Source of the DNA: Carcharhinus amblyrhynchos
Taxonomy: Eukaryota
Assembly: GCA_965287045.1 (NCBI GenBank)
Contig: OZ336882.1
Location: 53,258,001 to 53,322,000 of the forward strand
Reading direction: 5' to 3'
DNA: 64,000 nt
In this document: in pieces, positions 3,221 to 61,080 of the stretch
Numbering within the stretch: position 1 is the stretch's first letter
Layout of the letters: every line of letters begins with the position of its first letter
Translations under genes and position numbers: made by a program
The notes under the pieces: generated by a model
Database searches by the model: none
Told to the model about the DNA's origin: nothing
The model's input: only the letters and a program-made list of their open reading frames with translations

Positions 3221-4155
3221 AGGATTGATGCTTTGTGCTCATCTATCATTTTCCACATGATAACAGAATGAGGTTTCTGTGCAATTTATTGCAATGGCAG
3301 GATTCCTCAAGCTTCTGAGTGTTATTACTGCAATTCTACAGATCCCTTCACAAAATCCTGAAAGCGTGAACTAAAGCATTGTTAATCCATATATATTTAT
3401 ATATCAAAGAGAACCATTGAAACTGGATCATGCAAGTGAATGCATGCATCCTTGGCAGCAGTCATCTTCATTTTTTGTACCATTCTTGATGCAGAAGGCA
3501 GAGTATAAGGCATATCTAAAGCATTCCATTCATTTATAGGTCTTGACATCACTTAGATTACTATAAACAGCAGCAGAACACAGATACAAGGCCAGGGAGC
3601 CATCAAGGTTATTGTTGAACAGAATTTAGGCATCTTGAAGTAGTGTCTCAGGTGCTTGAAGAGATGAAGGAGTGTCCCAAGATGACCATTCTGTGCTCCT
3701 TCACTTTGATATCCTGAGAGAAATAAGTCTGGTGCAGATGGATTTACTTGATACAGCATACTGAAATATTGGCGAGCTTTACCATAACAGAATTTCTAAG
3801 AACGTTAATATTTTATTTCAATCTCTTGTGCCTGTCGCTGCATTCAAACTTGCTTCAACCGCCCTAGTTCTATCTTCAATGAGCAAAATGACCTGGGATG
3901 TGAAGGAGGACAAACCTGGTTTATTGCGTTCCTATCATGAGCACCTGGAAAGATGCCTCTGATATTGAAGGTGTGCATTTCTCTTTGTGTGTTCAGCAAA
4001 AAAAGCAGCCCCTTTGCATCACAAATACGTAGGGATAAAGTTCCTATTCCTGAATACTGCAGAGATCATTGTAGGCATGATAGACAATTTGATGGACCAT
4101 TGAACGGTTTGTTGACCTCAGGGTGGATGGGACCGGAACATTCTGTCCATAGTAT

Positions 4156-4460
4156 GCACAGTGGTTAGCACTGCTGCTTCACAGTGTCAGGGACCCGGGT
4201 TTGATTCCCAGATTGGGTCACTGTCTGTGTGGAATTTGCACCTTCTCCCTGTGTCTGTGTGGGTTTCCTCTGGGTGCTCCGATTTCCTCCCATAGTCTGA
4301 GAGACATGTTGGTTAGATGCAGCAGCTATTCTAAATTCTTCATCAGTGTACCTGAACAGGCGTTGGAGTGTGGCAAGTTGGCGATTTTTACAGTAACTTC
4401 ATTGCAGTGTTAATGTAAGCCTACTTGTGACAATAATAAATACACTTAAAACTTAAAAAC
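4156..4460 (+). mobile_element. V-SINE / HE1-like tRNA-derived SINE
   Basis: tRNA-like head (GCACAGTGGTTAGCACTGCTGC...GGGTTTGATTCCC), V-domain core (TGTGTGGAATTTGCACCTTCTCCCTGTGTCTGTGTGGGTTTCCTC) and A-rich tail. Confidence 0.85.
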
Positions 4461-4666
4461 ACTGCTTACCCCTCTATCTATAGACAACAGATTCCTCTGG
4501 GCAGTCCAACCAAGGCCGGAGGGTTATTCACAATAAAAGTGAGACCAAACTCAAGAGATAGGCCAAGTGGAATTTTGGTGAGTGTTACACTTACTGCTCC
4601 AAGATACAACTATTTGAACACAAAGTGGAGCATTTACCTTAACATGGCTGTGACATATTAGGTAGC

Positions 4667-4796
4667 CATGATGTGGAGATGTGGCATTGGACTGGGGTAA
4701 GCACAGTAAGAAGTCTCACAACACCAGGTTAAAGTCCAATAGGTTTATTTGGTAGCAAAATCCACAAGCTTTCAGAGCACTGCCCCTTCACCAGGT
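4667..4796 (-). mobile_element. Solo Penelope pLTR 3' end (degenerate hammerhead + tail), related subfamily
   Basis: The reverse complement aligns to 53882-54010 and ends at the same ...CACATCATG. It is flanked by CATATTAGGTAGC (4654-4666) and CATGTTAGGTACC (4797-4809), a 13-bp TSD with 2 mismatches. Confidence 0.8.
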
Positions 4797-11420: not shown

Positions 11421-11758
11421 ATAGAACATAGAACCCTACAGTGCAGGAAGAGGACCTTCAGCCCGTCGAGTCTGCACTGAACACAATCCCACCCAGGCCC
11501 TATCCCCATATATTACACCCACTAATCCCTCTAACCTACGCATTGCTAGATACTAAGGGGCAATTTCTTAGCATGGCCAATCAACCTAACCCGCACATCT
11601 TTGGACTGTGGGAGGAAACCAGAGCACCCGGAGGAAACCCACGCAGACACAAGGAGAATGTGCAAACTCCACACAAGCAGTGACCCAAGCCAGGAATCAA
11701 ACTCAGGACCCTGGAGCTGTGAAGCAGCAGTGCTACCCACTGTGCTACTGTGCCACCC
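11421..11758 (-). mobile_element. V-SINE / HE1-like, full length
   Basis: The reverse complement has the tRNA head, V core (GGAGGAAACCAGAGCACCCGGAGGAAACCCACGCAGACAC on +) and CR1-like tail. Confidence 0.9.
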
Positions 11759-11799
11759 AAATAGTCACGCATATCAGAGGTATATTGTTTCCTATGTAG

Positions 11800-12469: not shown

Positions 12470-13965
12470 AAGAGAACAAAAAAAAACGAAAAGCACAGCA
12501 CAGGAACAAGCCTTTGGTGCTCCAAACTTGTGCTGATGATGATGCCCTAACTAAACTAAAAGAGAACCTCCTGCCCTTACTTGGTCAGATCTCTTTATTT
12601 CCTCCCTATTCAAGTCCCCATCCAGTCTCTTAAATGTTGCTAATGTACCTGCTTCCACCATCTCCTCTGGCAGCGCATTCCAGGCACCCACCACCCTCTG
12701 TCTGAAAAACTTCCCCCATATGTCTCCCTTAAAATTTCCCCTCTCACCTTGAACTTGGGCTCTCTTCTAATTGACACTTCCACCTTGGGAAAAAGCCTCT
12801 GACTCTCAATCTTGTCTATGTCTCTCATAATTTTGTAGACCTCTATCAAGTCTTCCCTCAGCCTCCATATTTTAGTGAAAACAATCCTAGTTTATGCAAC
12901 TGTTCTCATAGTCAATGCCCTCAGGACCAGACAATATCCAAGCGAACCTTCTTTGCACTCTCTCCAAAGCTTCCACATCCTTCTGTTGTGTGGCGACCAG
13001 AACTGTATGCAATACTCCAAGATTTCCCAACTCTTATACTCAGTGCCCCAGCTGATGAAGACAAGCATTCCATTTGCCTTCTGAATCACCTTGGCCTCCT
13101 GTGTTGCTACTTTTAGGGAACTGTGGACCTGCATGCCCAGATCCCTCTGGATGTTAATGTTTCGAAGGGTTCTGCCATTTACAGTATAATTCACACCTAA
13201 ATTTGATCGTCCAAAATGCATCAACTTGCATTTGTCTGGATTAAACTCCATCTGCGATTTCTGTGCCCAAGACTCCAATCTATCCATGTCCTGTTGTATC
13301 CTCTGATAATTGTTGCAACTATCAACAACTCCACCAATCTTCAGGTAATCCTCAAACTTAGTAATCAGACCACCCACATTTTCCTTCAGATCATTTAAAT
13401 ATACCACAAAGAGCAGAGGTCCTAGCATTGATCCCTGTGGAACACTATTAGCTACGGATCTCCATTCTGGAAAACATTCTTCCACCACCACTCTCTATCT
13501 TTTATAACCAAACCAGTTCTGTATCCATCTAGCCAGTCCACATCTAATGATTTTAGGTTTTTTCCAATTTTCCATGTGGGGCTTTATCAAATGCTTTACT
13601 AAAGTCCATATAAACTACATCCACAGCCCTTCCCTCATCAATTATCTTTGTCACCTCTTCAAAAACTCAACTATGACCTTCCCCATTCAAATCCTTGCTA
13701 CCTGTCACTAACTAGTCCATTTTCTTCCAAATACATATCTCCTGTCTCTCAGTACCTTCTCCAAAAGCTTCCCTACCACTGACGTCAGGCTCACTGGTCT
13801 GTAATTTCTTGACTTATCCCTGCATTTTTTCTTAAACAAGCAAACAACATTGGCTATTCTCCAGTCCTCTAGAACCTTGCCTGTTATCAAAAAGGATGTA
13901 AAGGTATCTATTAAGGCCCCAGTTATCTCTCCTTTGCCTCCTGCAGTAACCTGGGATAGATCCAC
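12470..13965 (-). mobile_element. CR1 LINE ORF2 RT region plus 3' tail (pseudogenised)
   Basis: ORF-track peptides DWRIANVVCLFKK..NYRPVSLTSVVGKLLEK, VPQGSMLGPLLFVVYLNDL, QMEFNPDKCKLMHFG and LEYCIQFWSPH. Confidence 0.9.
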
Positions 13966-14315
13966 ACCTCACCATTCACGGACCCAAAGACTTCCTTCAG
14001 GTTAAGCAGCATTTCACTTGCATTCCCTTCAATGTCATTAATTGTGTTTGCTGCTCCCAATGTGGTTTCCTCTACCTAGGGAAGACTAAATGCAGACTGG
14101 ATGACTACCTTGTGAACATACCTTTGCTCAGCCTGCAAACATGACCCCAAAATTCCTGTTGCATGCCATTTTAACTCACCACATTGCTTTTATGCCCACA
14201 AGCCAATCGATGGCCTGCTGCAATGCTGTGGGTATGCCGGCGTTGGACTGGCGTAAACACAGTAAAAAGTCTGACAACACCAGGTTTTAGTCCAACCTAT
14301 TTATTTGATGATATA

Positions 14316-14355
14316 CTCACAAGCTTTCGAGGGGACTGCCTCTTCATCAGGTGAA
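14316..14355 (-). ncRNA. Minimal type I hammerhead ribozyme
   Basis: Minus strand reads UUCAC-CUGAUGA-A-GAGG-cagucc-CCUC-GAAA-GC-UU-GUGAG: stem I, conserved core, stem II and a palindromic AAGCUU stem III. Confidence 0.8.
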
Positions 14356-14362
14356 TGGAGAG

Positions 14363-14402
14363 TTCACCTGACGAAGAGGCAGTCCCCTCGAAAGCTTGTG
14401 AG
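14363..14402 (+). ncRNA. Minimal type I hammerhead ribozyme
   Basis: UUCAC-CUGACGA-A-GAGG-cagucc-CCUC-GAAA-GC-UU-GUGAG. Confidence 0.8.
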
Positions 14403-14766
14403 TATATCATCAAATAAATAGGTTGGACTAAAACCTGGTGTTGTCAGACTTTTTACTGCTGCAATGCTCCAGTGAAGACCGGCTGAAGCTGGAGTAGCAG
14501 CATCTCAACTTCCAGTTGGTCACATTGCAGCCCTTAGGACTCAACACTGAGTTCAGCAACTTTAGATGTTGACCTTTCTCCTCTGTCTTGAAACCCCTTT
14601 CTTCTTTTATTTAATATTCCATACATGTATTGCCTCAACGCACAATACCCCCTCCCCTTCTCATGCCAGCCCATCTATCATTTGTTCTTAAAGATGCTAC
14701 TTTTTTATTGCAGTTTCTACAACTGTAACACATTCTCCTTCCTTTCAGTGCTGACAAAGAGTTGTT

Positions 14767-15348: not shown

Positions 15349-15632
15349 GGGGTGGCACGGTGGCATAGTTATTAACACTGCTGCCTCACAGCTTTAGGGG
15401 CTCGGATTCAATTCCCAGCTTGGGTCACTGTCTGTGTCGAGTCTGCACATTCTCCCCGTGTCTGCGTGGGTTTCCTCCCACTGTCCAAAAGATGTGCTGG
15501 TTAGATAGATCGGTCAGGCTAAATTCTCCCTCAGTGTATCCTAACAGGCACTGGAGTGTGACGACTTGGGGATTTTCACAGTAACTTTATTGCAGAGTTA
15601 ATGTAAGACTACTTGTGACAATAATAAATAAG
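15349..15632 (+). mobile_element. V-SINE / HE1-like, full length
   Basis: Head, V core and the tail TAATGTAAGACTACTTGTGACAATAATAAATAA. Confidence 0.85.
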
Positions 15633-27444: not shown

Positions 27445-28000
27445 GGGCCCGATTTNNNNNNNNNNNNNNNNNNNNNNNNNNNNNNNNNNNNNNNNNNNNN
27501 NNNNNNNNNNNNNNNNNNNNNNNNNNNNNNNNNNNNNNNNNNNNNNNNNNNNNNNNNNNNNNNNNNNNNNNNNNNNNNNNNNNNNNNNNNNNNNNNNNNN
27601 NNNNNNNNNNNNNNNNNNNNNNNNNNNNNNNNNNNNNNNNNNNNNNNNNNNNNNNNNNNNNNNNNNNNNNNNNNNNNNNNNNNNNNNNNNNNNNNNNNNN
27701 NNNNNNNNNNNNNNNNNNAGAGGAGGGGGGAGGGGAGGGAGGGAGAGAGAAAGAAGAGAGAGGGAGGGAGAAGAGAGAGGGAGGGAGGGAGAGAGAAGAC
27801 AGGAGGGAGGAAGAGGGCACATGAGCAGTTCAGAGCTCTGATCATTTCAGCCATGCTAAGCCCTGCCCACAGTGTGAATGGGACTGGAAATATTATTTTC
27901 GGGCTGAGTGTGTATGGGGGTGTCTGAAAGCAGATTTCTAAGTTGGATCTGCATTACGCACAGATTCAGCACTTAGAATGAAAATGGTGAAATCGGGCCC
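27445..28000. mobile_element. DNA transposon with perfect 11-bp TIRs spanning the assembly gap (PIF/Harbinger-like)
   Basis: GGGCCCGATTT at 27445-27455 and AAATCGGGCCC at 27990-28000, with TAT on both sides. The CR1 host resumes across it. Confidence 0.75.
27456..27718. other. Assembly gap (N run), followed by a GA-rich low-complexity tract to about 27820
   Basis: Run of n characters. Confidence 0.99.
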
Positions 28001-31597: not shown

Positions 31598-31905
31598 GAG
31601 CAGCATTGTGGCACAGTGGTTATCACTGCTGCTTCACAGTGCCAGGGACCTGAGTTCGATTCCCAGCTTGGGTCACTGTCTGTGTGGAGTTTGCATGTTC
31701 TCCCCGTGTCAGCGTGGATTTCCTCCAGGTGCACCGGTTTCCTTTCACAGTCCAAGAGACGTGCTGGTTAGTTGGATTGGCCATGCTAAATTCTCCCTCC
31801 ATGTACCTGGACACGCACCAGAGTGTGGCAACTAAGGGATTTTTATAGTAACTTCATTGCGGTGTTAATGTAAGTCTATTTGTGATAAATAAAGAAACTT
31901 TACAT
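31598..31905 (+). mobile_element. V-SINE / HE1-like
   Basis: GTGGCACAGTGGTTATCACTGCTGC head, V core and tail. Confidence 0.85.
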
Positions 31906-36140: not shown

Positions 36141-36723
36141 CACTAGTCTATAGTTTCCATATTATTTTGTATGATTGGCTATTATTTCAGCATTCCCCTC
36201 ATGATTCTTCTCTGGATTTGTTTGCATTATGCAAATATCCCCCTCCACTTACTTTTGTTAATATTAGTGGCCGGATGCTGAGTATGTTTGCCTTTCAGGT
36301 TTTTAAAACTTGCACTTACATATATATTGAGCACTGTTCCAACTGCTTACATCAGAGAGATCCTCAGAAAGGAATCTATTTTACTGCAAGGCTACCAGAC
36401 AGGTTATTGCAAAAAGCAAGGCTGCATAACATACTGTAGTGATAGGGATACTAATTCTGAGCACAGTTGAATACATTAGGTAAGTAGGTAGGTGTTGTAT
36501 ATGTTTTAAAGGGATAGAAGAATGCCACCATAGTATTAATAGTTTGACAGAGTAAGGATTAACGTGGGACTGGAGAACAGTACCGTCTATGGTATGATTA
36601 GACAGTCACATGCTGGTAGACTTTAGAGTAGCGTGTGGAAGGAACAAAAATGGAGTCAGCACCCACACATGGCAGTGCCTAGGATTGTGCACAGTTATGG
36701 GTTAACAATACATGGTTCATATT

Positions 36724-36775
36724 TGTGAAACTTCTCACTGTGTTTACCCCAGTCCAACGCCAGCATCTCCACATT
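36724..36775 (+). mobile_element. Penelope pLTR tail-only fragment
   Basis: TGTGAAACTTCTCACTGTGTTTACCCCAGTCCAACGCCAGCATCTCCACAT matches the terminal about 50 nt of the pLTR. ATATTT on both sides is a possible short TSD. Confidence 0.7.
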
Positions 36776-37276
36776 ATATTTAAACATACAGGCCTCCAGA
36801 CTTCTTATTGAGAGACCGAACAAGCTTTCACAGCAATAGGTAAATAGAAAGGAAGGATGAAAGGAAGCGAGGGAAGGAGACATTACAAGCATCATTAACA
36901 GTGTAATGGTGAACAGGAAATAATTGTAACACATCAATTCTAATATTGTAAAATATCTGTAACCTTCTTGAAAAATATTGTGTAAATGACACATACCATT
37001 GTTGATGCACAGATTAGGGGAAGGTGGTGTTGACATAATGCTAATGTCACTGGATTTGTCTTCCAGATACTCAAATTAATGTTCTGAGTATACATGTTCA
37101 AATCCCACCATTGCAGCTGGTGGAATTTAAATTCAATTCATTAATACACTTAAAAGCTACTCCCAGTACTAACAACCATAAAAACCCATCTGCACTCTCT
37201 CCTTTCCTTCTCTGTGCATGTTATGCTTTGTCTGTATAGTGCACAAGAAACAATACTTTTCACTGTATACTGATGC

Positions 37277-39137: not shown

Positions 39138-40092
39138 TTGCACAGTGGCACAATGGTTAGCACTGCTGTCTCACAACGCCAAGAGCCTGGGTTCAATTCC
39201 AGCCTTGGGTGACTGTGTGGAGTTTGTATGTTTCCTCCATGACTGCATGGGTTTCCTCAGGTGTTCTGGTTTCCTCCCACAGTCCAAAGATGTTCACGTT
39301 AGATAGAGTGGCCATGCCAAATTGATCCTTAGTGTCAGGGATATTAGCAGGGTAAATATAGAACATAGAAAGACTACAGCACAAACAGGCCCTTCGGCCC
39401 ACAAGTTGCACCGATCATATCCCTACCTACTAGACTTACCTATCATCCTCAATCCTATTAAGTCCCATGTACTCATCCAGAAGTCTCTTAAAAGACCCTA
39501 TCGAATTTGCCTCCACCACCACCGACGGCAGCCAATTCCACTCATCCACCACCCTCTGAGTGAAAAACTTACCCCTGACATCTCCTCTGTACCTACTCCC
39601 CACACCTTAAACCTGTGTCCTCTCCCTAGCAACAATGTCAGCCCTGGGAAAAAGCCTCTGAGAATCCACCCGATCTATACCTCTCAACATTTTATACAGC
39701 TCACCTCTCATCCTTCGTCTCTCCAAGGAGAAAAGACCGAGCTCCCTCAACCTATCCTCACAAGGCATGCCACCCAATCCAGGCAACATCCTTGTATATC
39801 TCCTCTGCACCCTTTCAATGGCTTCCACATCCCTCCTGTAATGAGGCGACCAGAACTGCGCACAGTACTCCAAGTGGGGTCTGACTAAGGTCTTATAAAG
39901 CTGCAGCATTATTTCCCGACTCCTAAACTCAATTCCTCGATTGATGAAGGCCAGTACGCCATATGCCTTCTTAACCACATCTTCTACCTGCGAGGCCGAT
40001 ATGTGTATGTGGATATGTGGATTACGGAGATAGGGCCTGGGTGAGATTGTTATTGGTGTAGACTCGATGGGCTAAATGGCCTCCTTATGTAC
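39138..40092 (+). mobile_element. V-SINE split by a CR1 insertion
   Basis: SINE head and core at 39138-39358; the SINE 3' part resumes at about 40000-40092. Confidence 0.75.
39359..39998 (-). mobile_element. Relatively young 5'-truncated CR1 LINE
   Basis: Peptide VKKAYGVLAFINRGIEFRSREIMLQLYKTLVRPHLEYCAQFWSPHYRRDVEAIERVQRRYTRMLPGL; tail TTCTATGTTCTAT on the minus strand. Confidence 0.9.
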
Positions 40093-46920: not shown

Positions 46921-47607
46921 GTTTTGCATTCAGTTTAAATTGCCTCTTCCCACATTTCCAACTAACGTATTTCATTCCATTTAACTCTATGTCAAGTTGT
47001 AATTGTCATGTGACTGCTCATTTTGCTATGTCTGTTTTGGTGCATCCGTACTTTGCTCCTGTATCCCTAATTTAACTCTGCTGAGTTGAAATGAGAGATG
47101 GAGGACTGCATCAAGAATGCAACTGTAAGTCCTAGAATTTACAACATTGCCACCTGCAAAGCAAGATAAAGTCACCCACCTATTGTAAATAATCTATGCA
47201 CTGAGAGATAGTTTAGATGCTTGCAACAGTTTATCTGAAGCATAAACATGAACCCATTTTAGCAGCAAACATGGCCTTCTAAAATTGTTTCTTTATTTTA
47301 AATACTGTTGACAATTTGCAATCAAATCACTTGAACTACATTAATATTTTACAACCAAATTAGCGCTGGCACAACAGAGTATTGAAGATTCAAAGATGTC
47401 CTCAAACTGGGTGTTTTTCTTGTTAGGTCTGTACGTTTTGGGGGTTTTGCAGTATAAAACCTTTTTAATTCAAATATTCAGGCCCTGAAATTTACACCTG
47501 GGGCGGCGGTCCGGGGGACCAGAGGTGAGGGGGGTGGGGGGTGTGCATTGTCTGTGCCTGAAGTTGGCACAGACGGAAATGATGTGAAACCTGTTTCCAC
47601 CCAAGAT

Positions 47608-47974
47608 ACAGTAAAAAGTCTGACAACACCAGGTTTTAGTCCAACCTATTTATTTGATAATATACTCACTAGCTTTCGGGGTTACCCCCTTCGTCAGGTG
47701 AATGGAGAGTTCTGGCCTCAGACAGAGCATATAAAGCACAGACAGTTTACAGATTACTGATTAAAATGCGAATCCTTACACCTAACCTGCTGTTCAAGAC
47801 CTGAAGTGGCTGATAATGTGAGTGGAAGGAGCACTGATCACAGTTTAAAGAGATGTGTATTGTCTCCAGACAGTACAGTAAGTGAGGTTTTGCAAACCCA
47901 GGCAAGTCATGGGGGTTACAGATAGTGCGACATGAACCCAAGATCCCTGTTGAGACCGTCCTCATGTGTGCGGA
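47608..47974 (-). repeat. Pseudo-LTR (3' pLTR of the inverted arm, tail-less)
   Basis: Reverse complement of 53607-53973 with one substitution that I could see. Confidence 0.9.
47665..47702 (-). ncRNA. Minimal type I hammerhead ribozyme
   Basis: Minus strand reads UUCAC-CUGACGA-A-GGGG-GUAA-CCCC-GAAA-GC-UA-GUGAG. Confidence 0.85.
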
Positions 47975-50594
47975 ACTTGGCTATCAGTCTCTGCTCAGCG
48001 ACTCTGCGCTGTCGTGTGTCGTGAAGGCCGCCTTGGAGAACGCTTACCCGAAGGTCAGAGGCTGAATGCCCGTGACCACTGAAGTGTTCGCCAACAGGAA
48101 GGGAACAGTCTTGCCTGGTGACTGACGAGCGATGTTCATTCATCCGTTGTCGTAGCGTCTGCATGGTCTCCCCAATGTACCATGCTTCGGGACATCCTTT
48201 CTTGCAACGTATCAGGTAGACAATGTTGGCCGAGTTGCAAGAGTATTCACCACGTACCTGGTGGATGGTATTCTCACGTGTGATGATGGTATCCATGTCG
48301 ATGATCCGGCATGTCTTGCAGAGGTTGCTGTGACAGGGTTGTGTGGTATTGTGGTCACTGTTCTCCTGAAGGCTGGGTAGTTTGCTGCGAATAATGGTCT
48401 GTTTGAGGTTGTGTGGTTGTCTGAAAGCAAGAAGCGGGGGTGTGGGGATAGCCCTGGCGAGATGTTCGTCTTCATCAATGATATGTTGAAGACTCCGGAG
48501 AAGATGTCGTAGCTTCTCCGCTCCGGGGAAGTACTGGACGACGAAGGGTACTCTGTCCACTGTGTCCTGTGTTTGCCTTCTGAGGAGATTGGTGCGGTTT
48601 TTCGCTGTGGCGCATCGGAACTGCTGATCTATGAGTCGAGCACCATATCCTGTTCTTATGAGGGCATCTTTCAGGGTCTGGAGGTGTCTGTCACGATCCT
48701 CCTCATCTGAGCAAATCCTGTGTATACGGAGGGCTTGTCCATAGGGAATGGCTTCTTTAACATGTTTAGGGTGGAAACTGGAGAAGTGGAGCATTGTGAG
48801 ATTGTCTGTGGGCTTGCGGTACAGTGAGGTGCTGAGGTGACCGTCCTTAATGGAGATGCGTGTGTCCAAGAATGCAACTGATTCTGGGGAATAGTCCATG
48901 GTGAGTCTGATGGTGGGGTGGAATTTGTTGATATCATCATATAGTTGTTTCAGTGATTGTTCACCATGAGGCCAAAGGAAGAAAATGTCATCGATGTATC
49001 TAGTGTATAGCATTGGTTGAAGATTCTGTGCAGTGAAGAAGTCTTGTTCGAACCTGTGCATGAAGATGTTGGCATATTGAGGTGCAAATTTGGTCCCCAT
49101 GGCTGTTCCATGTGTCTGGATGAAAAACTGGTTGTTGAAGGTGAAGACATTGTGGTCCAGGATAAAGCGGATGAGTTGTAAAATTGCATCTGGAAACTGG
49201 CAGTTGTCAGCATTGAGTACTGAGGCAGTCGCAGCAATGCCATCGTTGTGGGGGATGTTGGTGTAGAGCGCTGAGACATCCATTGTGACGAGGAGTGTCC
49301 CTGGTTCAACTGCTCCGTGTGTGCTGAGTTTCAGTAGGAAGTCTGTAGTGTCGCGACAAAAGCTGGGGGTTCTTTGTACAATGGGTTTCAGGATGCCCTC
49401 GACGTAGCCGGAGAGGTTCTCACACAGAGTCCCATTGCCCGATACGATGGGACGGCCAGGTGTGTTTGCCTTGTGTATCTTTGGGAGGCAGTAGAGATCT
49501 CCAATGCGGGGAGTACGTGGAATGAGAGCACGAAGGGTGCTCTGAAGGTCCGGATCAAAGGTCTTGATCAGATTGTTGAGTTGACGAGTGTGTTCTTTGG
49601 TCGGATCTGTGGGTAATTGTCTGTAGTGTTCCTCATTGTTTAGTTGTCGGTACACTTCTTTACAGTAATCCGTTCTGTTCAGTATGACGATGGCCCCTCC
49701 TTTGTCTGCTGGTTTAATGACAATGTTGCGGTTTGTCTTGAGAGCGTGGATGGCGTTGCGTTGTGCTTGGGTGATGTTCGGGGCTGTCTTGTGAGTGCGG
49801 CTGATGAATCTGGTGTTAACGCACCTCCTGATGGTTTGGGCATACAAGTCCAGTCGAGGGCAGCGGCCTTCCGGAGGAGTCCAATTGGATTCCTTCCTCT
49901 TAGGCTGTTGCACTGCGGATCTCTCTGTCGGCTGTTCTGGTTCATCGACTGTCTCACTGTGTTTGTTGCTGGCCTCTTGGGGTTTGTGGAAAAACTCCCG
50001 CAGCCTCATTCGCCTGATGAATTCCTCTGTGTCCGCTGCGAGACTGATGGGGTCCATTTTGGTGGTGGGGCAGAAATTGAGCCCTCGGCTGAGAACTTCG
50101 ATTTCATCTGGTTGAAGTGTGTAGTCCGACAAGTTGACAATAGACCTCCCTGCGGTAGTGCTGTTTTCTACTGTGGTGCCGGGGGAGGCTTGGTTGTTGC
50201 TGGTGGCGATGCCGAGTTTTTCAAGTTTCCTGTTCTTGGTGTGCGTGTAGGTGGTGTAGTTTCTTTGTCTCATCTGCTTGGCAGAGTTTCGCAGTTGGTC
50301 TGCATCCTGAGCACAAGTTGAGAAAATGTATTCCATTTTAGTTTCCAGGGTGTGGCGTTTGCTGTAAAGCTGGTGTATGAGGTGGTTGAGAAGTGTGAGA
50401 GAGGTGCGACGGCAAAGTCTCTCAGCGTAGTCTGTGTTATAGGTTGCCCTGAGTGGGTTCGTGATCTGTAGTCCTTTTGGTATCTTGTCTGCTTTCTTGC
50501 ATCTCTGTAAAAACTTGATGTCTGTGTCGATATGCGCAATCTTCTTGGAGATCCTCTCCACTTGGATCCGGCAGTTTGCGGTGTCCGCACACAT
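47916..50594 (-). CDS. Penelope-like RT + GIY-YIG endonuclease, inverted copy with a chimeric N-terminus (MCADTANC..., 892 aa)
   Basis: Uninterrupted frame. The protein matches the plus copy from DTANC onward except QVRG vs QVHG. The first in-frame ATG (50594-50592) comes from the antisense strand of the central pLTR; the track start at 50633 is a GTG. Confidence 0.85.
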   Translation of the reverse strand: MCADTANCRIQVERISKKIAHIDTDIKFLQRCKKADKIPKGLQITNPLRATYNTDYAERLCRRTSLTLLNHLIHQLYSKRHTLETKMEYIFSTCAQDADQLRNSAKQMRQRNYTTYTHTKNRKLEKLGIATSNNQASPGTTVENSTTAGRSIVNLSDYTLQPDEIEVLSRGLNFCPTTKMDPISLAADTEEFIRRMRLREFFHKPQEASNKHSETVDEPEQPTERSAVQQPKRKESNWTPPEGRCPRLDLYAQTIRRCVNTRFISRTHKTAPNITQAQRNAIHALKTNRNIVIKPADKGGAIVILNRTDYCKEVYRQLNNEEHYRQLPTDPTKEHTRQLNNLIKTFDPDLQSTLRALIPRTPRIGDLYCLPKIHKANTPGRPIVSGNGTLCENLSGYVEGILKPIVQRTPSFCRDTTDFLLKLSTHGAVEPGTLLVTMDVSALYTNIPHNDGIAATASVLNADNCQFPDAILQLIRFILDHNVFTFNNQFFIQTHGTAMGTKFAPQYANIFMHRFEQDFFTAQNLQPMLYTRYIDDIFFLWPHGEQSLKQLYDDINKFHPTIRLTMDYSPESVAFLDTRISIKDGHLSTSLYRKPTDNLTMLHFSSFHPKHVKEAIPYGQALRIHRICSDEEDRDRHLQTLKDALIRTGYGARLIDQQFRCATAKNRTNLLRRQTQDTVDRVPFVVQYFPGAEKLRHLLRSLQHIIDEDEHLARAIPTPPLLAFRQPHNLKQTIIRSKLPSLQENSDHNTTQPCHSNLCKTCRIIDMDTIITRENTIHQVRGEYSCNSANIVYLIRCKKGCPEAWYIGETMQTLRQRMNEHRSSVTRQDCSLPVGEHFSGHGHSASDLRVSVLQGGLHDTRQRRVAEQRLIAKFRTHEDGLNRDLGFMSHYL

Positions 50595-50986
50595 GAGGAC
50601 GGTCTCAACAGGGATCTTGGGTTCATGTCGCACTATCTGTAACCCCCATGACTTGCCTGGGTTTGCAAAACCTCACTTACTGTACTGTCTGGAGACAATA
50701 CACATCTCTTTAACCTGTGATCAGTGCTCCTCCACTCACATTATCAGCCACTTCAGGTCTTGAACAGTAGGTTAGGTGTAAGGATTCGCATTTTAATCAG
50801 TAATCTCTAAACTGTCTGTGCTTTATATGCTCTGTCTGAGGCCAGAACTCTCCATTCACCTGACGAAGGGACTAACCCCGAAAGCTAGTGAGTATATTAT
50901 CAAATAAATAGGTTGGACTAAAACCTGGTGTTGTCAGACTTTTTACTGTGTTTACCCCAGTCCAACGCCGGCATACCCACATCATG
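50584..50986 (+). repeat. Central pseudo-LTR (direct repeat of 53607-54010)
   Basis: Begins TCCGCACACATGAGG (the last 59 nt of the ORF plus the 3' UTR) and ends at the ORF ATG. It has about 7 differences from the right pLTR. Confidence 0.92.
50855..50892 (+). ncRNA. Minimal type I hammerhead ribozyme with weakened stem II
   Basis: UUCAC-CUGACGA-A-GGG-acuaac-CCC-GAAA-GC-UA-GUGAG. Predicted cleavage is after A50887. Confidence 0.75.
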
Positions 50987-53665
50987 ACTACTATCGACAC
51001 CGCAAACTGCCGGATCCAAGTGGAGAGGATCTCCAAGAAGATTGCGCATATCGACACAGACATCAAGTTTTTACAGAGATGCAAGAAAGCAGACAAGATA
51101 CCAAAAGGACTACAGATCACGAACCCACTCAGGGCAACCTATAACACAGACTACGCTGAGAGACTTTGCCGTCGCACCTCACTCACACTTCTCAACCACC
51201 TCATACACCAGCTTTACAGCAAACGCCACACCCTGGAAACTAAAATGGAATACATTTTCTCAACTTGTGCTCAGGATGCAGACCAACTGCGAAACTCTGC
51301 CAAGCAGATGAGACAAAGAAACTACACCACCTACACGCACACCAAGAACAGGAAACTTGAAAAACTCGGCATCGCCACCAGCAACAACCAAGCCTCCCCC
51401 GGCACCACAGTAGAAAACAGCACTACCGCAGGGAGGTCTATTGTCAACTTGTCGGACTACACACTTCAACCAGATGAAATCGAAGTTCTCAGCCGAGGGC
51501 TCAATTTCTGCCCCACCACCAAAATGGACCCCATCAGTCTCGCAGCGGACACAGAGGAATTCATCAGGCGAATGAGGCTGCGGGAGTTTTTCCACAAACC
51601 CCAAGAGGCCAGCAACAAACACAGTGAGACAGTCGATGAACCAGAACAGCCGACAGAGAGATCCGCAGTGCAACAGCCTAAGAGGAAGGAATCCAATTGG
51701 ACTCCTCCGGAAGGCCGCTGCCCTCGACTGGACTTGTATGCCCAAACCATCAGGAGGTGCGTTAACACCAGATTCATCAGCCGCACTCACAAGACAGCCC
51801 CGAACATCACCCAAGCACAACGCAACGCCATCCACGCTCTCAAGACAAACCGCAACATTGTCATTAAACCAGCAGACAAAGGAGGGGCCATCGTCATACT
51901 GAACAGAACGGATTACTGTAAAGAAGTGTACCGACAACTAAACAATGAGGAACACTACAGACAATTACCCACAGATCCGACCAAAGAACACACTCGTCAA
52001 CTCAACAATCTGATCAAGACCTTTGATCCGGACCTTCAGAGCACCCTTCGTGCTCTCATTCCACGTACTCCCCGCATTGGAGATCTCTACTGCCTCCCAA
52101 AGATACACAAGGCAAACACACCTGGCCGTCCCATCGTATCGGGCAATGGGACTCTGTGTGAGAACCTCTCCGGCTACGTCGAGGGCATCCTGAAACCCAT
52201 TGTACAAAGAACCCCCAGCTTTTGTCGCGACACTACAGACTTCCTACTGAAACTCAGCACACACGGAGCAGTTGAACCAGGGACACTCCTCGTCACAATG
52301 GATGTCTCAGCGCTCTACACCAACATCCCCCACAACGATGGCATTGCTGCGACTGCCTCAGTACTCAATGCTGACAACTGCCAGTTTCCAGATGCAATTT
52401 TACAACTCATCCGCTTTATCCTGGACCACAATGTCTTCACCTTCAACAACCAGTTTTTCATCCAGACACATGGAACAGCCATGGGGACCAAATTTGCACC
52501 TCAATATGCCAACATCTTCATGCACAGGTTCGAACAAGACTTCTTCACTGCACAGAATCTTCAACCAATGCTATACACTAGATACATCGATGACATTTTC
52601 TTCCTTTGGCCTCATGGTGAACAATCACTGAAACAACTATATGATGATATCAACAAATTCCACCCCACCATCAGACTCACCATGGACTATTCCCCAGAAT
52701 CAGTTGCATTCTTGGACACACGCATCTCCATTAAGGACGGTCACCTCAGCACCTCACTGTACCGCAAGCCCACAGACAATCTCACAATGCTCCACTTCTC
52801 CAGTTTCCACCCTAAACATGTTAAAGAAGCCATTCCCTATGGACAAGCCCTCCGTATACACAGGATTTGCTCAGATGAGGAGGATCGTGACAGACACCTC
52901 CAGACCCTGAAAGATGCCCTCATAAGAACAGGATATGGTGCTCGACTCATAGATCAGCAGTTCCGATGCGCCACAGCGAAAAACCGCACCAATCTCCTCA
53001 GAAGGCAAACACAGGACACAGTGGACAGAGTACCCTTCGTCGTCCAGTACTTCCCCGGAGCGGAGAAGCTACGACATCTTCTCCGGAGTCTTCAACATAT
53101 CATTGATGAAGACGAACATCTCGCCAGGGCTATCCCCACACCCCCGCTTCTTGCTTTCAGACAACCACACAACCTCAAACAGACCATTATTCGCAGCAAA
53201 CTACCCAGCCTTCAGGAGAACAGTGACCACAATACCACACAACCCTGTCACAGCAACCTCTGCAAGACATGCCGGATCATCGACATGGATACCATCATCA
53301 CACGTGAGAATACCATCCACCAGGTACATGGTGAATACTCTTGCAACTCGGCCAACATTGTCTACCTGATACGTTGCAAGAAAGGATGTCCCGAAGCATG
53401 GTACATTGGGGAGACCATGCAGACGCTACGACAACGGATGAATGAACATCGCTCGTCAGTCACCAGGCAAGACTGTTCCCTTCCTGTTGGCGAACACTTC
53501 AGTGGTCACGGGCATTCAGCCTCTGACCTTCGGGTAAGCGTTCTCCAAGGCGGCCTTCACGACACACGACAGCGCAGAGTCGCTGAGCAGAGACTGATAG
53601 CCAAGTTCCGCACACATGAGGACGGTCTCAACAGGGATCTTGGGTTCATGTCGCACTATCTGTAA
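50984..53665 (+). CDS. Penelope-like retroelement polyprotein: reverse transcriptase + GIY-YIG endonuclease (893 aa; Cys-rich linker suggests Neptune clade)
   Basis: PLE RT motifs PADKGGAIV, LPKIHK, PGRPIVS, TMDVSALYTNIP, GTAMGTKFAPQYANIFM, RYIDDIF, FLD, LYRKPT and SFHP. Linker PCHSNLCKTC...YSC. Endonuclease VYLIRCKKGC..WYIGET..RQRMNEH..VGEHF..H..E..GLN. The first ATG is at 50984; the track start at 50948 is a GTG. Confidence 0.95.
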   Translation: MTTIDTANCRIQVERISKKIAHIDTDIKFLQRCKKADKIPKGLQITNPLRATYNTDYAERLCRRTSLTLLNHLIHQLYSKRHTLETKMEYIFSTCAQDADQLRNSAKQMRQRNYTTYTHTKNRKLEKLGIATSNNQASPGTTVENSTTAGRSIVNLSDYTLQPDEIEVLSRGLNFCPTTKMDPISLAADTEEFIRRMRLREFFHKPQEASNKHSETVDEPEQPTERSAVQQPKRKESNWTPPEGRCPRLDLYAQTIRRCVNTRFISRTHKTAPNITQAQRNAIHALKTNRNIVIKPADKGGAIVILNRTDYCKEVYRQLNNEEHYRQLPTDPTKEHTRQLNNLIKTFDPDLQSTLRALIPRTPRIGDLYCLPKIHKANTPGRPIVSGNGTLCENLSGYVEGILKPIVQRTPSFCRDTTDFLLKLSTHGAVEPGTLLVTMDVSALYTNIPHNDGIAATASVLNADNCQFPDAILQLIRFILDHNVFTFNNQFFIQTHGTAMGTKFAPQYANIFMHRFEQDFFTAQNLQPMLYTRYIDDIFFLWPHGEQSLKQLYDDINKFHPTIRLTMDYSPESVAFLDTRISIKDGHLSTSLYRKPTDNLTMLHFSSFHPKHVKEAIPYGQALRIHRICSDEEDRDRHLQTLKDALIRTGYGARLIDQQFRCATAKNRTNLLRRQTQDTVDRVPFVVQYFPGAEKLRHLLRSLQHIIDEDEHLARAIPTPPLLAFRQPHNLKQTIIRSKLPSLQENSDHNTTQPCHSNLCKTCRIIDMDTIITRENTIHQVHGEYSCNSANIVYLIRCKKGCPEAWYIGETMQTLRQRMNEHRSSVTRQDCSLPVGEHFSGHGHSASDLRVSVLQGGLHDTRQRRVAEQRLIAKFRTHEDGLNRDLGFMSHYL

Positions 53666-54010
53666 CCCCCATGACTTGCCTGGGTTTGCAAAACCTCACT
53701 TACTGTACTGTCTGGAGACAATACACATCTCTTTAAACTGTGATCAGTGCTCCTTCCACTCACATTATCAGCCACTTCAGGTCTTGAACAGCAGGTTAGG
53801 TGTAAGGATTCGCATTTTAATCAGTAATCTCTAAACTGTCTGTGCTTTATATGCTCTGTCTGAGGCCAGAACTCTCCATTCACCTGACGAAGGGGGTAAC
53901 CCCGAAAGCTAGTGAGTATATTATCAAATAAATAGGTTGGACTAAAACCTGGTGTTGTCAGACTTTTTACTGTGTTTACGCCAGTCCAACGCCGGCACAC
54001 CCACATCATG
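53607..54010 (+). repeat. 3' pseudo-LTR with 37-nt tail ending at the position of the ORF start codon
   Basis: Direct repeat of 50584-50986; ends ...CCCACATCATG immediately before the TSD. Confidence 0.92.
53879..53916 (+). ncRNA. Minimal type I hammerhead ribozyme
   Basis: UUCAC-CUGACGA-A-GGGG-GUAA-CCCC-GAAA-GC-UA-GUGAG, with a GNRA-capped stem II and a palindromic AGCU stem III. Predicted cleavage is after A53911. Confidence 0.85.
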
Positions 54011-54257
54011 TCCACCCAAGATTGCATTGTTAATGCAAGTTGGCCAATATGTAATGCATCTGCCAATTGTGCTGACACTGAGACAGACTGGGAACGCATC
54101 ACTCTCTGAATCCAATGAGGACCCAGTGGCAGGGTTTAAAATGAGAGAGGGCAACTCCCTGAATGCTGCCAGGGGTGTAAGGGAGGCTGAGGGAGCTGAA
54201 ATCAACAACTGCAAGAAGTTTCATGAACAGCAATGGCATCAGCAATAGGAGCCCAAT

Positions 54258-54625: not shown

Positions 54626-54950
54626 AGAATCCATACAATCCCTACAGGGTAGGAGGCTATTTGGCCATCAAGTCTGCACCAACCACAATCCTAACTAGGC
54701 CCTATTCCCGTGACCCCACATATTTACCCTGCCAATCCCCTTACTCTAGGGTTAATCTAGCATGGTCAATCAACTTAACCTGCACATCTTTGGATTGTGG
54801 GAGGAAACCGGAGCATCCAGAGGAAACCCATGCAGACATGGGGAGAACGTGCAAACTCCATACAGACAGTGACCCAAGGCCGGAATTGAACCCAAATCCC
54901 TCAGACTGTGAGGTAGTAGCGCTAACCACTGTGCCACCATGCCATCCCGC
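54623..54950 (-). mobile_element. V-SINE / HE1-like, full length
   Basis: Reverse-complement head, V core and tail. Confidence 0.88.
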
Positions 54951-60470: not shown

Positions 60471-60795
60471 GTGATCTTTCCCCTCCACCTTGATCCCTTT
60501 TATGTTTCTTATGTTCCTTGTTTGCCTCCCCCATAGGACCATCTGTCATTTGTTCTTAAATATTGCATTCACTGAGAACTCTTATGAACACGTTCTGCTA
60601 TTTTGCCTTTATGCAACTATCCGTCATTAATGCTATCATGAACACTCTCTTTGTCTTGTGTCCATGATATGTTTGTCAATCTCTCCTTAGTTCTCACCTA
60701 TCCCTGACCTTCTATTCTGCTCCGCCTCCTTCAAGAATAAAAGGCATCACATTCTTCAGTTATGAAGAAAAGTCATCGGGACTTGAAATGTTGGG
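60470..60795 (+). mobile_element. Old Penelope-type 3' UTR with a degenerate hammerhead
   Basis: Pyrimidine-rich UTR ending CAGTTATGAAGAAAAGTCATCGGGACTTGAAATGTT: (C>A)UGAAGA core, AAGUC/GACUU stem II, GAAA. Confidence 0.5.
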
Positions 60796-60796
60796 T

Positions 60797-61080
60797 TTCT
60801 CCGACTTTGCCTATAGCTGGGATTCTCTGACCTCCCTGTAACTTGGCTTCTCCAACCTCGCCTGTGGCTGGGATTCTCCGACTTCACCTGGGGCTGGGTT
60901 TCCCTGACCTTGCCTGTGGCTTGGAACCTCTGACCTCGCCTGTAGCTGGGGTTCTCTGACCTCGCCTGCAGCTGAGATTCTCCGACCTTGCTGTGTCTGC
61001 ATTTCTCTAACCTCGCCTCTGGCTCGGATTCTCCCACCTCACCTATAGTTGGGATTCTCCAACCTCATCTGTGGCTGGGA
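60797..61080. repeat. Minisatellite, 26-bp unit x11
   Basis: Consensus TTCTCYRACCTCGCCTGTRGCTGGGA; nine 26-bp and two 25-bp units. Confidence 0.9.

Follow-up and report, generated by a model that had tools for sequence, protein, structure and literature searches.

Background

The layout described for Penelope-like elements (PLEs) comprises a partial tandem that creates a pseudo-long terminal repeat (pLTR), an optional inverted and 5'-truncated copy, a tail of 30-40 nucleotides (nt) at one end, and a target site duplication (TSD) (PMC8557442). An inverted pLTR followed by pLTR, open reading frame (ORF), pLTR and tail within one TSD is regarded as the typical arrangement (PMC3846280), and the same layout is called typical in PMC8557442 and PMC2377424, too. 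How the tandem and the inverted ends originate is an acknowledged open question (PMC8557442). Here, we describe a PLE insertion in a stretch of 64,000 nt from Carcharhinus amblyrhynchos (contig OZ336882.1 of assembly GCA_965287045.1, positions 53,258,001-53,322,000 of the forward strand). This whole stretch is called the window, and all coordinates are window positions. The locus is one insertion event of a probably Neptune-type PLE with a nearly complete mirror copy. The architecture itself is not new; the length of the inverted copy alone is extreme in comparison to the standard PLE layout.

Architecture and target site of the insertion

The inverted arms (47608-50585 and 50996-53973) are 2,978 nt long each, are separated by 410 nt and differ at exactly 3 of 2,978 positions, as counted in the first-pass annotation of this DNA, without a single indel. 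One difference (51181/50400) is synonymous in codon 66, one (53328/48253) is a CpG-type change of His/Arg 782, where each residue is found among the proteins of shark relatives, and one (53831/47750) lies within the pLTR. Two of the three are transversions; one is private to the left arm, the other base being common to both direct pLTRs.

The whole unit is enclosed by the 12-bp TSD TCCACCCAAGAT (47596-47607 and 54011-54022), which occurs nowhere else in the window on either strand and is the longest exact repeat shared by the two ends (chance 8e-8 for one register and 3.6e-5 for 21x21 registers). Both outer ends enclosed by it are 3' ends of the element. Neither flank is matched elsewhere in the window, and the two do not mirror one another (23-26% identity). 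Because of the single TSD and the unique flanks, the locus represents one insertion event, and the earlier reading of one event bounded by one perfect TSD is upheld.

The 410-nt spacer, previously described as almost entirely one pLTR, consists of the inner pLTR (50584-50986) plus 9 nt of the ORF. On the plus strand, inner pLTR, ORF, 3' pLTR and a 37-nt tail follow one another as a partial tandem. The tail is present at only one of the insertion's two ends and ends on an ATG (site B), while the end of the pLTR is referred to as site A. Partial tandem, inverted 5'-truncated copy, one-end tail and TSD, which make up the layout of endonuclease-containing (EN+) PLEs, are all present, and the PLE identity assigned earlier is supported by this layout as well as by the protein domains. 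The features are as follows; the last one served as an internal control.

47596..47607, plus strand: left TSD copy, 12 bp
47608..50585, minus strand: inverted copy, slightly 5'-truncated, spanning ORF nt +13 through site A at the end of the pLTR, tailless
47608..47974, minus strand: 367-nt pLTR belonging to the inverted copy; minimal hammerhead at 47664-47703
47916..50594, minus strand: open 892-codon frame of the inverted copy
50584..50585, no strand: head-to-head junction with a 2-nt overlap
50584..50986, plus strand: inner (5') pLTR, a 5'-truncated upstream tandem copy, with a hammerhead at 50854-50893 and a 37-nt tail ending on ATG
50984..53665, plus strand: intact ORF of 893 amino acids (aa)
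53607..53973, plus strand: 3' pLTR, overlapping the ORF end, with a hammerhead at 53878-53917, ending at site A
53974..54010, plus strand: 37-nt tail, ending on ATG (site B)
54011..54022, plus strand: right TSD copy, 12 bp
14215..14468, minus strand: miniature PLE insertion sharing this layout, from a subfamily with 92% identity

The inverted copy

The locus had been described as two intact ORFs, the inverted segment being essentially a complete second element. Both frames are indeed open from stop to stop (918 and 917 aa), and the inverted copy keeps 889 of the 893 codons. However, it starts at ORF nt +13 and is devoid of native codons 1-4, of a sense 5' pLTR and of the tail. Therefore, the insertion is one intact element plus one headless mirror copy, not two intact elements. 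The left frame starts with M-C-A in place of M-T-T-I, using an ATG that is a chance codon from the antisense inner pLTR; nine other ATGs precede it on that strand, and no promoter-bearing pLTR lies upstream in its own orientation. Judged from the sequence, the right element (pLTR-ORF-pLTR-tail) appears expressible, and translation of the left mirror copy is unlikely.

The protein and its clade

The 893-aa ORF comprises an N-terminal helical domain, a reverse transcriptase (RT) similar to that of telomerase (TERT) with the residues D440 and YIDD 534-537, a CX4CxxC linker and a GIY-YIG endonuclease (EN). The RT was matched by RVT_1 (E 1.4e-9). The AlphaFold model (pLDDT 92) gave TERT as top Foldseek match, and in a second fold search (VIA) the top three matches were telomerases (Z 17-18, rmsd 4.2-8.0, 323-384 aligned residues). 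A single ORF with a telomerase-like RT, as expected for EN+ PLEs, is present.

For the endonuclease, PF01541 matched the isolated domain (E 3.7e-5, 24.4 bits at a cut-off of 22.6) and was missed in the scan of the whole protein. Of the 105 relatives in the alignment, at least 90% share the residues C798, C802, H822, H838, R818, E868 and N883. The C-terminal GIY-YIG endonuclease with the CCHH motif and the catalytic R, H, E and N of EN+ PLEs is thus present. The single-sequence fold of this domain was unusable (pLDDT 33.5), and the fold searches with the whole model barely test it. Searches of the PDB by sequence and by profile gave no matches, and a scan of NCBIfam returned sub-threshold bacterial RT models only.

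The linker C755-x4-C760-xx-C763 (residues 755-763) lies between RT and EN and is found in 83 of the 105 aligned relatives. According to PMC8557442, a CX2-5CxxC motif between RT and EN marks the Neptune and Nematis clades and is absent in Penelope and Poseidon; the latter clades were rejected, since the putative Zn-finger motif is present. Neptune is preferred over Nematis because Neptune and Poseidon alone are reported among the vertebrates sampled in the preprint 10.64898/2026.07.22.740005. The element is thus probably of Neptune type, an assignment made by elimination from linker motif and vertebrate sampling.

In a homologue search, 2,922 of 8,000 scored candidates were matches, and the named proteins closest to the query come from Mustelus (91% identity), Scyliorhinus (85%) and Heptranchias (84%). 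The shark PLE proteins in public annotation belong to the same family and are partial (48-72% coverage) and named 'uncharacterized', whereas the present copy is full length. In a quick tree of 27 of the 105 aligned rows, the query clusters with the Scyliorhinus and Heptranchias rows (support 99), which marks the host as shark-like. Three public gene models (P0067, P0020 and P0026) join the PLE ORF to host domains, for example in an epsin-2 isoform of Heptranchias; these fusions are probably caused by annotation read-through into intronic copies.

pLTR alleles and hammerheads

The inner pLTR includes the last 59 nt of the upstream ORF copy, the 3' untranslated region, the hammerhead and the 37-nt tail. 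In comparison to the 3' pLTR with its tail (53607-54010), 7 of 404 positions differ (1.7%), which is roughly 17 times the divergence of the arms. At all five diagnostic sites that the inverted arm covers, it has the base of the 3' pLTR. Two differences lie in the tail, and for both of them both alleles are seen in other copies within the window. This suggests that they are family variants older than the insertion. If so, the two direct pLTRs would come from different templates, and an origin by rolling-circle copying from a single circular monomer, or by strong-stop transfer on one RNA, would be disfavored. The inner pLTR would then stem from a mixed tandem donor, or else from a template switch, for which the interval 50975-50995 alone is available. 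This interval coincides with the stop of the left arm. Here, the inverted arm stops 9 nt from the inner tail end, for which the chance is about 1% under uniform stops, a figure calculated post hoc.

The minimal hammerhead of PLEs is defined by the core boxes, an extra base before helix II and a palindromic helix III (PMC4209133). A pattern scan revealed five minimal motifs in the window, all inside PLE pLTRs and each with 6 of 6 stem-I pairs, and stem II displays a two-sided change between the subfamilies. Judged by these motifs, the pLTRs carry candidate minimal hammerheads that match the PLE definition. An Rfam scan gave no match at either threshold. In the inner pLTR, an adjacent 2-nt change weakens stem II of the hammerhead (-10.7 vs -14.8 kcal/mol). 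No significant RNA structure was detected at the tail (z -0.46) or at the ORF start (z -0.08).

Probable priming from both target ends

By the established geometry of target-primed reverse transcription (TPRT), a TSD is the mark of a staggered cut whose two 3' ends face inward. The best explanation for the locus, held with moderate confidence, is dual priming of one such cut at two start sites flanking the tail. Here, the endonuclease would make a 12-nt staggered cut with two inward-facing 3' ends, and a probably dimeric RT would prime cDNA at both of them without homology, beginning at site B, where the tail ends on the ATG, for the right target end and at site A, where the pLTR ends, for the left one. 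The same type of template, ORF plus 3' pLTR, would be copied into both cDNAs. The left cDNA would halt at ORF nt +13 to +15, and the right one would read on for about 410 nt, into an upstream pLTR that carries a different allele. Head-to-head joining of both cDNA ends and fill-in would then complete the insertion.

Dual priming is favored because of the following evidence, in addition to the single TSD with an element 3' end at either side, the unique and unmirrored flanks and the PLE-typical layout. The protein PAc of the Anolis Poseidon element cleaves and extends both strands, its RT starts without homology at two sites bracketing the tail, and a head-to-tail dimer is predicted for it (PMC11167929). 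In both inverted insertions of the window (2/2), site A lies within 1-4 nt of the end of the inverted arm, and the tail is on the other arm. Furthermore, a model of residues 1-330 of the shark protein supports a head-to-tail homodimer via residues 42-77 with a score of 0.47 (best of three controls 0.00), at least 31% of contacts agreeing between runs and a pLDDT of at least 61. Among microbial proteins, 21 of 30 homodimers and 0 of 23 monomers attained the mark for this score; among eukaryotic ones, 17 of 29 homodimers (animals 7/16) and 0 of 30 monomers did so. The predicted N-terminal homodimer supports binding and is not a proof of it. Priming at both target-DNA ends had already been proposed from the sequence and is, by way of the two-strand cleavage and extension known from Poseidon, the most likely route.

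The second inverted insertion is the miniature copy, which, despite its resemblance to a hairpin or a miniature inverted-repeat transposable element (MITE), is a doubly truncated PLE. Its tailed arm spans 14223-14365 on the minus strand, and its tailless inverted arm (14363-14458) ends at site A. The arms overlap by 3 nt around a 7-nt loop, the 13-bp flanking repeat includes microhomology with the element ends, and two hammerheads are present. At the large insertion, ATT lies across the right TSD edge, similar to the cleavage by PAc, which is not so in the miniature copy (n=2).

Several observations weigh against dual priming. The two-strand biochemistry comes from Poseidon, not from Neptune, and PMC11167929 reports no strand difference in the use of the start sites, so that a fixed pairing of site A and site B with the two ends is not predicted. 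A length of about 3 kb should seldom be attained by two cDNAs independently; the remaining three of the four related pieces in the window span less than 150 nt of the element per arm. In addition, the arms are nearly symmetric in both inverted insertions (loops of 7 and 410 nt), as predicted for a cDNA that folds back on itself. Finally, the junction gives no positive signal. The TC overlap at 50584-50585, through which the two cDNAs had been thought to be joined by microhomology, is present; since about 15% of random joins have an overlap of at least 2 nt, it is at chance level and no evidence for such joining. A 12-nt imperfect duplex appears at the junction in a fold, but extended pairing was rejected as junction evidence, as it is matched or beaten by 30%, 17% and 11% of 3,000 random site pairs (20-, 30- and 40-nt windows, respectively).

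Alternative explanations

The main rival, which is nevertheless unlikely, is fold-back of one cDNA. Here, a single first-strand cDNA of about 3.4 kb would loop back and self-prime just past the inner pLTR, so that ORF and 3' pLTR are copied as DNA. The product would end at site A, through a cut or a stop, and then join the second target end. This would account for the 3'-pLTR alleles shared at 5/5 sites and for a spacer of about one pLTR, and it explains the near symmetry of the arms better than dual priming. A fold-back landing within the inner pLTR would produce an inverted pLTR of the usual short size, whereas landing just beyond it would force a full-length arm. The loop and overlap of the miniature copy are in line with fold-back. 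Self-priming on an antisense template has been proposed for palindromic junctions of PLEs (PMC3846280), and fold-back inverted duplications of target DNA with 2 bp have been described at L1 insertions (10.1101/2024.12.14.628481; PMC10191854). On the other hand, fold-back would require that two independent insertions were both stopped or cut precisely at site A, and site A corresponds to an RT start site in the Poseidon assay (PMC11167929). Furthermore, 2 nt are a weak closure for a loop of 410 nt, and the extended pairing is equalled by 11-30% of random site pairs.

The remaining routes are less probable. An interior assembly artefact, in which the ends are real and a collapsed high-copy repeat supplied the long left arm, is improbable: a gap of 263 N in the window and the two transversions among three arm differences would fit, but the arms are not identical, one difference being private to the left arm, the central junction sequence is unique, the flanks are unmirrored, and the TSD as well as the ends at sites A and B are as the family dictates. 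Later repair is also improbable. Here, a break in an ordinary insertion with a short inverted pLTR would have been followed by invasion of the 3' pLTR, backward copying of the ORF and rejoining; alternatively, gene conversion would have homogenised the arms. The same allele pattern would result, with an inner pLTR 1.7% divergent against 0.1% for the arms; yet the presence of both alleles of the two tail differences in other copies of the window makes these look older than the insertion, ORF and TSD are undamaged, and the ratio of observed to expected (o/e) CpG is 0.61 in the arms and 0.22 in the flanks. Two separate insertions that abut head to head by chance are very improbable and largely refuted by the single TSD: although insertion of a PLE into its own pLTR is a scenario put forward in PMC11167929, one TSD encloses both copies, neither host DNA nor a second duplication is found at the junction, and the arms are 99.9% identical.

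A more specific and doubtful reading sees the locus as a snapshot of pLTR regeneration, combining run-off from a unit-length RNA cut at the tail with a jump to a second RNA. The template RNA would have its 5' end at the tail end (site B), where the left cDNA would have run off, which would explain why the left arm stops 9 nt short of the tail end. The right cDNA would run off the same end, restart at the tail of a second RNA and gain an inner pLTR with different alleles. If true, this would exclude rolling-circle copying of one circular monomer and one-RNA strong-stop transfer, and formation of tandem and inversion would be two outputs of one dimeric TPRT step.

Age and activity

The divergence of the arms is 0.10% (95% interval 0.02-0.29%). 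With the shark mutation rate of 7e-10 per site per generation (PMC10587355), this corresponds to about 7e5 generations (1.5e5-2.1e6). The figure is a maximum if errors of the RT, the donor or the assembly account for some of the differences, and an underestimate if there is conversion between the arms. RT error alone would yield at least three differences with a probability of 0.02 at an assumed 1e-4 per base and of 0.27 at 3e-4. The insertion had been called very recent; the data are compatible with this but only bound the age, up to about 7e5 generations. The CpG o/e ratio of the arms and the undamaged ORF fit a young copy. Since the arm divergence is half of the nucleotide diversity of the epaulette shark (0.002; PMC10587355), an insertion polymorphism is plausible. 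The ORF is intact and the arm divergence is low; the element may be active in retrotransposition.

Other features of the window

Older scraps of related pLTRs with 77-85% identity are present at 4662-4796 (minus strand), ending near the same ATG boundary, and at 36723-36777 (plus strand), the latter being little more than a tail. The gap of 263 N (27456-27718), which shows that the assembly is scaffolded, lies beside GA-rich low-complexity sequence. A tandem array (60792-61080) consists of about 11 copies of a 26-bp unit with 72% matches. A SINE-like repeat, which may resemble the shark V-SINE/HE1, has many dispersed copies in both orientations (4150-4440, 11430-11760, 15350-15630, 31600-31900, 54640-54950 and others).

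The scan for host genes covered 96 of 147 ORFs of at least 75 aa, most of those inside the element, N-containing or on dispersed repeats being omitted. Pfam matched one of the 96, an RVT_1 RT fragment of LINE type (12892-13494, minus strand). Another LINE-type fragment at 39607-40071 (minus strand) had no Pfam match; we take it to resemble the C-terminus of CR1/L2.

Comparison with known systems

Three pLTRs that can be distinguished by their alleles are present inside one TSD, and therefore the formation of PLE ends becomes testable by genome-wide counting of the pLTR copied into the inverted arm and of the stops of long arms. A near-perfect palindrome of 3 kb could also form a fragile site or act as a source of family-silencing hairpin RNA. 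Furthermore, the locus provides a full-length and motif-complete Neptune-type ORF from a shark, while the biochemistry in PMC11167929 concerns Poseidon.

An explicit description of an inverted PLE arm with nearly the whole ORF was not found in the literature searched, mostly without subscription and without several early Penelope papers, so that this is weak evidence of absence. The accessible portions of PMC12910113, PMC8969392, PMC9977147, PMC4350176 and 10.64898/2026.07.22.740005 likewise contain nothing on long inverted dimers.

With the layout given in PMC2377424, the present locus shares a 5'-truncated and a full copy in tandem, an inverted terminal copy of variable size and a 3'-end repeat, which is 34-37 bp there. 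In contrast, the inverted copy here has 2,978 nt with 889 of 893 codons, and the protein is of Neptune type rather than Penelope or Poseidon. Similarly, Pen2a_Av from Adineta vaga has an inverted pLTR followed by pLTR-ORF-pLTR, a tail at one end, a single TSD (9 bp there) and a head-to-head junction. What is inverted there is a pLTR of 181 bp that overlaps a 15-bp palindrome (PMC3846280), whereas here nearly the whole element is inverted around an asymmetric 410-nt spacer. The Anolis Poseidon element PAc shares the two end positions around the tail, the upstream hammerhead and the predicted head-to-tail dimer of the N-terminal helical domain. However, its RT start sites are 111-118 nt inside the ORF (PMC11167929), while here the tail ends on the ATG.

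The twin priming of LINE-1 resembles the route favored here in that both target ends prime cDNA, resulting in a head-to-head inversion with short microhomology and one TSD. Twin priming of L1 copies non-overlapping parts of one RNA, unlike the present locus, in which the whole ORF and the pLTR have been copied twice.

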